Assembly (NCBI RefSeq): GCF_003334315.1
Contig: NZ_QOWR01000085.1
Reading direction: 5' to 3' (one strand)
DNA length: 11,574 nt
From: Escherichia coli
GTDB lineage: Bacteria > Pseudomonadota > Gammaproteobacteria > Enterobacterales > Enterobacteriaceae
A program made the position numbers and the translations under genes. Under the pieces are notes generated by a model, which saw nothing but the letters and a program-made list of their open reading frames with translations, was not told the origin of the DNA and ran no database searches. Shown here piece by piece: positions 7,213 through 8,324 of the stretch (the first letter of the stretch is position 1; each line of letters begins with the position of its first letter).

Positions 7213-8137
7213 TGATTTTTGCGCCTTTATTCTGACTCACGGGCGACCGGACAAAGTTCTGACTTACCGGACGTTGCGTCGTGCTGGCTATACCGGGAAA
7301 ATTTTTATCGTTGTTGATGATGAAGATAAGACACGGAATCAGTACATGGCTGAATTTGGTGAACAGGTGCTGGTGTTTTCCAAAGCCGATATCGCCAGTC
7401 GTTTTGACGAAGCCGATAATTTCTGTGACCGCCGCTCAATTTTTTACGCCCGTAATGCCTGTTTCGACCTGGCAAAACTGGTCGGGTGTAAATACTTCAT
7501 TCAGCTCGATGATGATTATCACGAGTTCCAGTTTCGGGTGGATCGCAACTATGACCAGGCCTATTTTCCGATAAGGAAACTGGATGCGATCCTTTCTGAA
7601 ATGCTGGCGTACTACGAATCAATACCTGCTCTTTCCATCGCTATGTCGCAGGGCGGGGATTTTCTTGGTGACAATGGCGGCCATGCTTCGTGGGTGAAAC
7701 GCAAGGCAATGAACAGCTTTATCTGTTCGGTTGATCGACCGTTCTCATTCATGGGGCGCATTAACGAGGATGTGAATACGTACACGAATCTCGGTCGCTG
7801 TGGTGAATTGTTTATGACGATCGGTGCTGTCCAGTTAGGGCAGAAACAGACGCAGAAAAACAGCGGCGGAATGACCGAGCTGTATCTGGATTCCGGAACC
7901 TACGTTAAAAGTTTTTACTCCGTCATGTATGCGCCGTCGTGCGTAAAAATCTCACTGATGGGTGCCAGCCATAAACGCATTCACCATCAGGTCACCTGGA
8001 ACAACGCTGCAGTAAAAATCCTTCACGAAAAATACAGGAAGAAGACACCCTGCATATCAATGGGGGTGACAAATGATTCCGTATTCGAAAGTCGAGTCTC
8101 TGGCAGCGTGCCGGATGACTGCACAACAAATCGCTGA
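7205..8137 (+). CDS. Uncharacterised protein with GT-A-like glycosyltransferase motifs
   Basis: ATG 7205 preceded by GAGGAGGAGGA and overlapping the upstream stop; N-terminal CAFILTHGRPDKV...IFIVVDDED and later YFIQLDDDYHEF resemble the beta-alpha-beta core and DxD motif of GT-A fold nucleotide-sugar transferases. This is a motif-level inference only. The track ORF begins 21 nt upstream at 7184. Confidence 0.5.
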   Translation: MRDDFCAFILTHGRPDKVLTYRTLRRAGYTGKIFIVVDDEDKTRNQYMAEFGEQVLVFSKADIASRFDEADNFCDRRSIFYARNACFDLAKLVGCKYFIQLDDDYHEFQFRVDRNYDQAYFPIRKLDAILSEMLAYYESIPALSIAMSQGGDFLGDNGGHASWVKRKAMNSFICSVDRPFSFMGRINEDVNTYTNLGRCGELFMTIGAVQLGQKQTQKNSGGMTELYLDSGTYVKSFYSVMYAPSCVKISLMGASHKRIHHQVTWNNAAVKILHEKYRKKTPCISMGVTNDSVFESRVSGSVPDDCTTNR

Positions 8138-8324
8138 CGTTCTGGATGTTGATCTGAACCGACTGAAAGAAAATCGGGAAGCAATGACAGATTTTTATGC
8201 GGCCATCCGTAAGGGCAGAGCGAAAGGTGAAGCCGAGTTACGAGCGGCATTGTTTAAGCTTGCCAGAAAAGGGGATGCCTTTGCTCTGCGCGAACTACTC
8301 AGGGTGGATAAAAATCAGGACTAA
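8073..8324 (+). CDS. Small helix-turn-helix protein (possible DNA-binding accessory of the packaging module)
   Basis: SD GGGGTGA 3 nt upstream of ATG 8073; 83 aa with HTH-like segment MTAQQIADVLDVDLNRL; overlaps the 3' end of the upstream gene by 65 nt in another frame. Confidence 0.45.
   Translation: MIPYSKVESLAACRMTAQQIADVLDVDLNRLKENREAMTDFYAAIRKGRAKGEAELRAALFKLARKGDAFALRELLRVDKNQD

Follow-up and report, generated by a model that had tools for sequence, protein, structure and literature searches.

The packaging region of an Escherichia coli prophage holds a small open reading frame (ORF) that begins inside the 3' end of a gene for a TET-associated glycosyltransferase (TAGT) and is read in another frame, which raises the questions of whether this overlap is a selected device or an accident, and what the small gene contributes beside the terminase genes that follow it. 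The original prediction, made from the letters alone, had left two pairs of alternatives standing, namely a non-functional read-through tail or a real coupling device for the overlap, and a DNA-binding partner of the terminase or a regulator for the small protein. Here both pairs are weighed in the window, the whole analysed stretch of 11,574 nucleotides, and in the homologous loci of other phages and prophages. The joint explanation that we favour, at a probability of roughly 70%, is that the small ORF is a genuine gene, that its overlap with the glycosyltransferase gene arose recently by the loss of a stop codon, and that its product is a DNA-binding accessory of packaging initiation. The features concerned are collected in Table 1.

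Table 1. Coordinates of the small gene, its signals and its neighbours in the window
Feature	Position	Strand	Remarks
ParB/Srx N-terminal domain protein (ynaK-like)	6421..7212	+	Opens the run ParB - TAGT - small gene - terminase
TET-associated glycosyltransferase (TAGT, alias 'GREB1-related protein')	7205..8137	+	310 aa from the PGAP start; PF20691, phrog_842
Read-through tail of the glycosyltransferase	8054..8137	+	27 codons (ISMGVTNDSVFESRVSGSVPDDCTTNR) and a TGA stop; alignments A2 and A3
Shine-Dalgarno site GGGGGTGA of the small gene	8062..8069	+	Spacer to ATG of 3 nt (CAA)
Two-frame overlap	8073..8137	+	65 nt; third codon positions of the small gene fall on first codon positions of the glycosyltransferase gene
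Small gene	8073..8324	+	83 aa, ATG start; phrog_309 match, 123 homologue clusters, AlphaFold2 (AF2) model
Internal ATG (Met15)	8115..8117	+	PGAP start of the 69-aa form WP_000126788.1; rejected as start
Small terminase subunit (Terminase_2 / phrog_51)	8328..9422	+	364 aa; starts 3 nt after the small-gene stop
Large terminase subunit	9394..10704	+	436 aa; overlaps the small-terminase gene by 29 nt

A conserved small gene with its own ribosome-binding site

The ORF listing of the window returned the 83-aa frame exactly where it had been predicted, beginning 65 nt inside the upstream gene and offset from its frame by one base. The duplex of its Shine-Dalgarno (SD) site GGGGGTGA with the 3' end of 16S rRNA amounts to -14.1 kcal/mol, which lies in the top 0.7% of the 281 +-strand ATG codons (mean -4.1, sd 2.9), and the SD that had been called good is thereby among the strongest in the window. 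The site is kept in the DNA alignment A2, and it contains an out-of-frame TGA (8067-8069) that serves as the stop of the upstream gene in some relatives.

PGAP starts the gene at the internal ATG instead, which would leave an overlap of only 23 nt. This start was rejected on three grounds: its SD reaches only -5.4 kcal/mol, the segment before Met15 is conserved (K6, E8, L10, A11, A12 and R14 in 35 aligned homologues, with E8 and A11 at 90% or more even across the distant long-form family), and many of the aligned homologues have Leu where the window protein has Met15. PGAP itself annotates the 83-aa form in strains where the glycosyltransferase gene is frameshifted (ET358) or deleted (ETEC1734). 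Translation of the small gene starts at ATG 8073, behind its own strong SD.

Homologues of the protein were found at E <= 1e-3 in Citrobacter, Serratia, Klebsiella, Yersinia, Salmonella, Erwinia, Pantoea and other genera. The phage collection contributed one distant relative, from Pasteurella phage Pmp13, and otherwise almost nothing but copies identical to the small gene. Over at least ten genera the identity is 50-80%, the length stays mostly at 79-93 aa and invariant positions are present, and the copies of the E. coli lineage differ by 16 synonymous versus 3 non-synonymous changes. The ORF belongs to the late operon of a Rac-type lambdoid E. coli prophage; it is a real gene, and purifying selection acts on it.

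These data also bear on a sceptical reading, in which the ORF is a decaying, functionless remnant of a displaced small-terminase gene or in which only the 69-aa PGAP form is made. The protein does resemble a long-form small terminase that lacks the C-terminal ~40 residues, and a complete small terminase of a different family adjoins it, as a displaced gene would have it; the shorter form has the PGAP annotation in its favour. A decaying remnant fits poorly with the stable length, the identity across genera, the invariant positions and the 16:3 ratio, while the conserved N-terminus, the Leu in place of Met15 and the inclusion of helix 4-12 in a confidently predicted fold speak against a 69-aa product, and this reading is highly improbable.

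Origin of the overlap

The upstream gene had been described as glycosyltransferase-like, an assignment that holds, since PF20691.4 (TAGT), precomputed on the identical 310-aa protein P0121, matches over the full length and phrog_842 matches residues 8-305 at E = 1.2e-103. Its longest ORF spans 7184..8137 on the + strand (317 aa), and the SD values of the two candidate starts are -12.7 at 7205 versus -10.5 at 7184. The C-terminal tail quoted in the original prediction, KYRKKTPCISMGVTNDSVFESRVSGSVPDDCTTNR, is indeed the real C-terminus of this ORF, although it is an extension only in part: the last 27 residues (ISMGV...TTNR) are non-conserved, while the KYRKKTPC before them is the normal end of the family.

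Relatives of the glycosyltransferase are mostly 283-295 aa long and cover ~90% of the 310-aa query. In a survey of 56 cluster representatives with a C-terminal motif of the W-N-N-x-x-V-K-I type, 17-25 residues follow the motif in 48 and 28-39 in three, whereas 46 residues follow only in the three E. coli 310-aa clusters; the remaining pair consists of a fusion-like outlier of 135 residues and one representative without a stated length. If only full-length relatives without fusions are counted, the 310-aa form occurs in these three clusters alone. It is frequent in E. coli (clusters of 2693, 82 and 3 members; 863 of 5426 complete genomes).

The position of the upstream stop relative to the start of the small gene tells the same lineages apart. 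When a stop before the small-gene start is counted as positive and one inside the small gene as negative, the junction measures +17 and +15 in Citrobacter, +8, +5, +3, +2 and -4 in Serratia, an E. coli type of 61% identity, Superficieibacter and Klebsiella, -16 in Yersinia and -38 in a Citrobacter locus with a ParB-like upstream gene. The stop thus falls from 17 nt before to 38 nt after the small-gene start in all other lineages, most often as ATGA, and a junction of -65 occurs only in the E. coli Rac-type lineage. In alignment A2, the ATA at 8054-8056 of the window stands opposite the TAA stop of Citrobacter (TGC-ATA versus TGC-TAA). The glycosyltransferase gene of the ancestor ended at or just before the small-gene start, and the stop still present as TAA in Citrobacter was lost in this E. 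coli lineage, which has ATA there; ribosomes therefore translate 27 extra codons, out of frame with the small gene, before they meet a chance TGA (8135-8137).

The overlapping stretch evolves in keeping with this course of events. Polymorphism among E. coli copies comprises only a few sites (4) in the overlap, which count as 4:0 synonymous to non-synonymous in the small frame and as 1:3 in the glycosyltransferase frame, and variable sites number 6.2 per 100 nt in the overlap versus 7.7 and 8.0 in its flanks, which indicates no added constraint. In strain ET358, a 1-nt deletion in a G-run lets the glycosyltransferase stop at the TGA within the SD, 3 nt before the ATG, and the tail is removed. 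The overlap arose recently and by accident, when one lineage of E. coli prophages lost a stop codon; no constraint on the tail is detectable, and the overlap does not amount to a conserved coupling device. Of the two alternatives put forward originally, the non-functional read-through tail gains support from its restriction to E. coli, its non-synonymous variation and its removal in ET358, and the coupling device fails on the observation that had been named beforehand as speaking against it, namely that the upstream gene of the homologues ends earlier.

It is still worth stating what a selected coupling device with a functional glycosyltransferase tail would have in its favour. The 310-aa form is common in E. 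coli, which would suit a tail function specific to that lineage as well as coupling, and in the RNA fold of minimum energy the SD is paired to CACCCU (8046-8051), a stretch inside the glycosyltransferase coding region, so ribosomes coming from upstream could unmask the SD. A masking hairpin was nevertheless rejected: most loci do pair the G-rich SD with C-rich sequence upstream of it, yet in 11 of 11 loci this pairing does not exceed that of shuffled upstream sequence (fraction of dinucleotide shuffles at least as paired 0.10-0.84), and the z-score of the local fold is only -1.84. The overlap is missing in all other lineages, the tail varies non-synonymously and can be lost, and the small gene has its own top-ranking SD. 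A stop 65 nt downstream of a start is beyond the range of termination-reinitiation. What marks a coupled gene pair is not seen here, as the overlap geometry is not conserved and the downstream SD is neither weak nor masked beyond shuffles. Selected coupling is therefore very unlikely, and the accidental origin of the overlap is retained in what follows.

Fold and homology of the 83-aa protein

The AF2 model of the protein (pLDDT 91) contains helices at 4-12, 17-23 and 28-31, followed by two helices at 35-65 and 69-82. The helix-turn-helix (HTH) read from the sequence is borne out by the first three (pLDDT >90), together with matches to HTH Pfam families in many relatives. Small terminases (TerS) form rings of 8-12 subunits through a central helical hairpin, for which the two helices after the HTH are a candidate counterpart.

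The clearest relationship comes from PHROG 309, whose profile matches residues 3-77 at E = 8.3e-23 over its positions 145-218 of 319; its label 'terminase small subunit' is annotation only. The 129-aa protein of Pasteurella phage Pmp13 matches phrog_309 at E = 8e-37. A profile search gathered 764 relatives, and most of the 150 best listed are ~100-175 aa long and match over their first ~85-100 residues, so that the 83-aa protein ends after the second post-HTH helix where these long forms run ~40 residues further. Some long forms match Pfam GP3_package. The AF2 model of a long form shows the same five helices and an extended tail, and its best Foldseek matches are 2AO9 and Sf6 gp1 (E = 0.04-0.3, probability 0.9-1.0, ~100-120 aligned columns), of which 2AO9 is a putative nonameric small terminase (PMC7672466). 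Judged by sequence, the 83-aa protein is homologous to the folded core of the ~100-175-aa PHROG 309 proteins, minus their ~40-residue C-terminal tail.

Other searches with the 83-aa protein itself returned little. Its model aligns with Sf6 gp1 and 2AO9 over the whole length, but at E >1, and Foldseek gave no match to it below E = 1; the top matches for the HTH part are regulators of the LuxR/GerE type, which are weak (E ~1) and cover the HTH only. Membership in LuxR/GerE finds no backing, as Pfam is blank for the window protein and just 1 of 45 relatives has a GerE match at E <= 0.001. Pfam and NCBIfam contained no usable match (best DUF2766, E = 0.19), and the sequence and profile search of PDB sequences yielded generic HTH proteins without any small terminase, the best being a designed repeat protein (E = 5e-8). 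Paralogy with the adjoining small terminase was rejected as well (profile-profile E = 0.19 over 24 columns).

Gene neighbourhood and role of the protein

Of 23 loci measured, 19 have the Terminase_2 small-terminase gene -1 to +9 nt after the small gene, as do the two additional Terminase_2 loci that were checked. Among the loci that keep this pair, the family of the large terminase varies, and so does the upstream gene. In the window, TGCGCA repeats stand at 8471-8528. Every small-gene locus examined has a DNA-modification gene, be it a TAGT, ParB-methyltransferase, Mom-like or DAM-like/GNAT gene, a short way upstream, with the one exception of strain ETEC1734, in which the ParB and glycosyltransferase genes are deleted and the small gene is retained. 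The long forms, in the three contexts examined, abut or overlap the large-terminase gene, and no other small-terminase gene is present. Yersinia phage vB_YenM_29.18 and Klebsiella phage ST846-OXA48phi9.2 carry full-length homologues of the 364-aa small terminase without the small gene, and they are also without DNA-modification genes at that place. At the junction of the glycosyltransferase gene and the small gene, no promoter-like or terminator-like site was found; the sole +-strand terminator-like site near the run lies upstream, at 6370-6393. Pairwise identities of the small protein correlate at 0.83 with those of the small-terminase N-terminus and at 0.79 with those of the glycosyltransferase, values that do not discriminate between the two neighbours.

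On these grounds the small protein is probably a terminase-associated DNA-binding accessory, and of the two roles originally proposed, the DNA-binding partner of the terminase appears better supported than the regulator, because the protein is homologous to a family at the small-terminase position and because its gene stays next to the small-terminase gene almost without exception. The protein would be produced in parallel with the small terminase and bind phage DNA by way of its HTH, and it might assemble through its paired helices. Several observations count against this role: Pfam and NCBIfam are blank and the PDB sequence matches are generic HTH only, the protein is without the C-terminal moiety by which known small terminases bind the large subunit, and the full-length small-terminase homologues of the two phages named above do without the small gene, so that the small gene appears dispensable for this terminase type in general.

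A transcriptional or translational regulator, acting on the late or packaging operon or on the upstream DNA-modification genes, would account for a small stand-alone HTH protein, for the weak LuxR/GerE-type Foldseek matches and for the relatives that match generic HTH Pfam families. It would also suit the DNA-modification gene just upstream and its joint absence with the small gene in the two phages. Such a role is a less likely candidate all the same, as the homology over the whole length is to proteins at the small-terminase position and not to regulators, the spacing to the downstream gene is tight while the upstream junction is loose and variable, the small gene survives the ParB-glycosyltransferase deletion of ETEC1734, and it is flanked on both sides by other late-operon genes and has no promoter-like site close by.

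A more speculative variant of the accessory role, to which we give little weight, is that a 'small terminase' is built from two genes, with the 83-aa and Terminase_2 proteins as its parts. In it, the short protein would represent a small-terminase core minus the tail that binds the large subunit, and would provide a second HTH array that links packaging initiation to the upstream DNA-modification module, perhaps by marking or recognising modified DNA near the packaging start site.

Implications

In hundreds of E. coli genomes PGAP cuts this gene to 69 aa and removes the first HTH helix, apparently because the read-through tail of the neighbour overlaps the true start, and the 83-aa form should be the reference annotation. 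The locus also offers a clear and datable case of how a long overlap originates, in which a stop codon is lost and neutral read-through in the other frame follows, and it cautions against reading function into long overlaps without a check of the homologues. The uncharacterised short protein, small-terminase-like and closely paired with a full small terminase, is widespread in the packaging modules of Enterobacterales prophages. If its role in packaging initiation is true, it would bear on the choice of DNA by pac-type phages and transducing prophages.

Comparison with known systems

The closest comparison is with TerS, represented by PHROG 309 and, as the nearest solved folds, by Sf6 gp1 (PDB 3HEF) and the Bacillus cereus prophage protein 2AO9. 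[quoted passage not shown] In known small terminases the C-terminal moiety contacts the large subunit and the protomer measures 15-21 kDa (PMC9611059), whereas the window protein has ~9 kDa and is without the stalk and flexible C-terminal moiety. The fold match of its model to the solved small terminases is not significant, and a complete Terminase_2 small-terminase gene separates it from the large-terminase gene, which the long forms adjoin directly.

The upstream protein is a typical member of the TAGT family (PF20691) in its full-length match and in its setting beside a ParB_N gene and terminase genes, and differs in the 27-residue C-terminal extension, which is absent from the family. Phage DNA dioxygenases are reported to occur together with glycosyltransferases, ParB proteins and terminases (PMC13229309); unlike this setting described for the family, the window contains no dioxygenase gene. 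The junction with the small gene recalls the ATGA-type stop/start overlaps by which neighbouring phage late genes are translationally coupled, and to which most relatives conform with a 4-nt overlap or a gap of a few nt, while in the window, owing to the lost stop, the upstream gene runs 65 nt into the small gene, an arrangement that is not conserved.

Small partners of terminases are also known elsewhere. The protein Rpp of phage-inducible chromosomal islands (PICI) binds the small terminase of the helper phage. Herpesvirus pUL33 is a small third component of the terminase complex (PMC9611059). The likeness of the 83-aa protein to pUL33 and Rpp is conceptual only, being that of a small companion of the two terminase subunits with a possible influence on DNA recognition or on assembly.

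The small gene and its start codon

The 83-aa open reading frame (ORF) was borne out by the ORF listing and the sequence in its position, its length, its 65-nt overlap with the glycosyltransferase gene and the quoted upstream tail, as the original prediction had it. The Shine-Dalgarno (SD) sequence called good there is indeed strong: the duplex of GGGGGTGA (8062-8069) with the 3' end of 16S rRNA has an energy of -14.1 kcal/mol, and by anti-SD pairing energy the SD of the 8073 ATG ranks in the top 0.7% among 281 ATG codons on the same strand. A search of 5.8 billion proteins yielded 123 homologue clusters, mostly of 79-93 aa and with the whole query covered, from Citrobacter, Serratia, Klebsiella, Enterobacter, Salmonella, Yersinia, Erwinia, Pantoea, Cronobacter, Hafnia, Buttiauxella and other genera. 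Alignment of 35 homologues revealed that residues 1-14 are conserved with the consensus MIPxxKvExLAAcR, while residue 15 is Leu instead of Met in many of them; E8 and A11 remained at least 90% conserved after distant, longer relatives were added. Residues 4-12 form the first helix of the AlphaFold2 model (pLDDT 91), and the E. coli copies of the gene differ by 16 synonymous versus 3 non-synonymous changes. We put at about 0.9 the probability that the gene is real, that it starts at 8073 and that its overlap is a side effect, confined to one lineage, of the loss of a stop codon.

The PGAP product starts at ATG 8115 and has 69 aa (WP_000126788.1), with an SD of just -5.4 kcal/mol. Since PGAP calls the full 83 aa in E. 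coli ET358 and ETEC1734, in which the glycosyltransferase gene is frameshifted and deleted, respectively, the most plausible reason for the shorter call is that the pipeline avoids overlaps. The 69-aa form is annotated wherever the glycosyltransferase gene overlaps the small gene, which looks like a systematic error recurring across many genomes with the overlapping form; the 69-aa and 83-aa forms each make up a sizeable cluster.

Origin of the overlap

The compared loci were drawn from representative genomes, assemblies encoding particular homologues and divergent E. coli copies. The overlap geometry turned out not to be kept among homologues, as a TET-associated glycosyltransferase (TAGT) stop at -65 nt relative to the small-gene ATG was found only in the E. 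coli Rac-type lineage. With TAGT upstream, the stop lies at +17 and +15 nt in Citrobacter, at +3 nt in Pantoea, at -4 nt (ATGA) in Serratia, a second E. coli type, Superficieibacter and Klebsiella, and at -16 nt in Yersinia. Where the upstream gene is another phrog_842 glycosyltransferase, a ParB-methyltransferase or a Mom-like gene, the stops lie at +8, +5 and +2 nt, and a ParB-like gene in Citrobacter stops at -38 nt. The closest outgroup is Citrobacter, with a glycosyltransferase 94% identical to that of the window, and DNA alignment sets its ...ACA CCC TGC TAA against ...ACA CCC TGC ATA TCA ATG GGG GTG... in the window. Because the Citrobacter TAA lies opposite ATA, the stop was lost in the window lineage, leaving the frame open until TGA 8135-8137.

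The length of the tail was surveyed in 56 glycosyltransferase cluster representatives with a C-terminal W-N-N-x-x-V-K-I-type motif. The protein ends 17-25 residues past the motif in 48 of them and 28-39 residues past it in three, and only in the three E. coli clusters of 310 aa does it run on for 46; the remaining two are a fusion-like outlier at 135 residues and one without a printed value. More distant relatives end a few residues past an HE(R/K)x(R/K)K motif.

The suggestion that the tail is non-functional read-through is favoured by the shorter upstream gene in other lineages and by polymorphism among E. coli copies, where the four overlap sites gave no sign of added constraint in the tail. 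All four are synonymous in the small gene, and three of the four are non-synonymous in the tail frame (S>C, C>R, R>S). The overlap has 6.2 variable sites per 100 nt, close to the densities of the glycosyltransferase body (7.7) and the remainder of the small gene (8.0), and other cluster representatives carry the tail substitutions M>I and S>C. Two natural variants alter the junction itself. In ET358 (locus L021, 1360-1373), a 1-nt deletion in the SD G-run puts a TGA in frame inside the SD, so that the glycosyltransferase ends 3 nt before the small-gene ATG, the same as in Pantoea. In ETEC1734 (locus L024, 1190-1276), the ParB gene is deleted along with the glycosyltransferase gene, of which only the final ~70 nt or so remain, and the small gene is intact.

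The alternative reading of the overlap as a coupling device fared poorly, as the overlap is absent in other lineages and the SD is masked no more than in shuffled sequences. In the minimum-energy RNA fold, CACCCU at 8046-8051 pairs with the SD, and most loci have small hairpins of this kind; the local fold at the junction has a z-score of -1.84. An SD-masking hairpin was rejected as the device, since in none of 11 loci did the SD pair with a greater probability than it did when the upstream sequence was shuffled. The junction of the two genes contains no promoter-like or terminator-like site. Independent initiation of the small gene is most likely, because it has its own very strong SD and the upstream stop lies 65 nt past its start, a distance that counts against coupling by termination-reinitiation.

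Prophage setting

The window comes from a Rac-type lambdoid E. coli prophage, of which it is the late region. This copy is unable to make particles because IS1 breaks the portal gene, whose ORF ends after 139 of ~470 codons at the IS1 start. Among 5426 complete E. coli genomes, the 6400-9500 segment has matches in 1608 (839 at >=80% of its length); the junction at 7900-8330 has matches in 895 complete E. coli genomes (863 at >=80%). The tandem phrog_5772 paralogues belong to an uncharacterised phage family, and both have a cysteine-containing hydrophobic N-terminal stretch.

Features of the window in order
Feature	Position	Remark
NinB-like, HNH-like, Q-like genes		first in window order
phrog_5772 paralogues, two tandem	2289-2717, 2868-3263	between Q-like gene and lysis genes
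holin, lysozyme, Rz/Rz1		after phrog_5772 pair
trkG	4808-6283	potassium transporter, prophage cargo; between lysis genes and ParB gene
terminator-like hairpin	6370-6393	3' of trkG
ParB_N gene	6421-7212	ynaK-like
TAGT	7205-8137	'GREB1-related protein'
small ORF	8073-8324	83 aa
small terminase	8328-9422	Terminase_2
TGCGCA(R), four copies	8471, 8495, 8507, 8522	palindromic hexamer; within 8464-8529, small-terminase codons ~47-67
D1 copies	8464-8478, 8500-8514, 8515-8529	A-run before each hexamer
large terminase	9394-10704
portal gene	within 10707-11574, shared with IS1	phrog_145, interrupted by IS1
IS1 transposase ORF	11137-11514	minus strand

Linkage to the small-terminase gene

The distance from the small-gene stop to the small-terminase start is -1 to +9 nt in 19 of the 23 loci measured, and in both of two further Terminase_2 loci (Klebsiella and the 88-aa Citrobacter type); the four exceptions carry a 220-codon insertion (one), a frameshifted small-terminase gene (two) or a truncated small gene (one). 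Meanwhile the upstream gene varies (TAGT, another glycosyltransferase, methyltransferases, Mom-like), as does the large-terminase family downstream (Terminase_6, Terminase_3 and others). The small gene therefore stays together with the small terminase, though not universally: in Yersinia phage vB_YenM_29.18 and Klebsiella phage ST846-OXA48phi9.2, the 364-aa small terminase has full-length homologues (40-43% identity) with no small gene upstream of them. An origin of the small gene as a paralogue of the small terminase was rejected, as profile comparison detected no relation.

In relatives, the gene directly ahead of the small gene is a DNA-modification gene (TAGT, ParB-methyltransferase, Mom-like or DAM-like/GNAT) at all loci examined except ETEC1734, which has lost it. 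A 2026 study reports phage DNA dioxygenases in company with ParB proteins, glycosyltransferases and terminases (PMC13229309); the window has the ParB_N and TAGT genes (6421-8137) and no dioxygenase gene. In the Citrobacter braakii locus L038 (3937-5267), the large-terminase gene that follows the small gene and the small terminase breaks off after ~330 codons and gives way to a phage-type integrase gene, which suggests that the locus is a remnant prophage broken by another element.

The small-terminase gene has features of its own. The TGCGCA(R) cluster recurs in loci L006, L008, L012 and L032, with 4-5 copies in nt 135-205 of the small-terminase gene, and is kept across proteins ~42-48% identical with the same N-terminal HTH type, with the Ala codon GCG and a preceding wobble T preserved as synonymous choices. 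It is absent from small-terminase genes of the other N-terminal type and tracks the small-terminase type rather than the presence of the 83-aa gene; it may be a pac-type repeat array. The invariant CxxC ... CPxC cysteines (C195, C198, C245, C248) in a conserved block (residues 195-248) suggest a zinc-ribbon-like insert, and the C-terminal ~80 residues vary with the large-terminase type.

Relation to known small terminases

Pfam, NCBIfam and PDB sequence searches returned no specific match for the small protein. By sequence it belongs to phrog_309, 'terminase small subunit' (PHROGs, E = 8e-23). Profile search of 1.84 billion representatives revealed 764 relatives; among the best 150, those beyond the close family are mostly ~100-175 aa and matched over their first ~85-100 residues. 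Alignment showed that the 83-aa family corresponds to this long family without the C-terminal ~40 residues that follow a conserved IFYLK..GW.E motif. In all three long-form contexts examined (Pasteurella phage Pmp13 and two pairs of metagenomic contigs), the gene adjoins or overlaps the large-terminase gene, with the portal gene next and no other small-terminase gene. A few long forms match Pfam GP3_package (P22 gp3 family). For the Pmp13 protein, AlphaFold2 (pLDDT 91) predicts the five helices of the small protein followed by an extended tail. The best Foldseek matches of this model were 2AO9 (E = 0.04-0.26, probability 0.87-1.0), a B. cereus prophage protein and putative nonameric small terminase (PMC7672466), and Sf6 gp1 (E = 0.3, probability 0.92).

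The small protein is best placed as a truncated variant that probably keeps the DNA-binding part of the small-terminase mechanism. The C-terminal tail of known small terminases contacts the large subunit (PMC9611059); by descent the protein looks like a small-terminase core minus this tail, and it is roughly an even bet that it serves as a terminase-associated DNA-binding accessory. The main rival, that it is a regulator, draws only on the generic HTH and on the DNA-modification genes constantly present upstream, and the phrog_309 kinship and the close small-terminase spacing speak against it.

Overlap by stop-codon loss is an ordinary phenomenon. Literature searches on small terminases turned up no description of a full small terminase accompanied by a short small-terminase-like protein, and the pairing is an uncharacterised arrangement. 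In spite of its phrog_309 membership, the small protein is not filed as a small terminase because two defining features fail: it is distinct from small terminases in lacking their C-terminal moiety and their size, and its gene is neither the only small-subunit gene nor placed directly ahead of the large-terminase gene.
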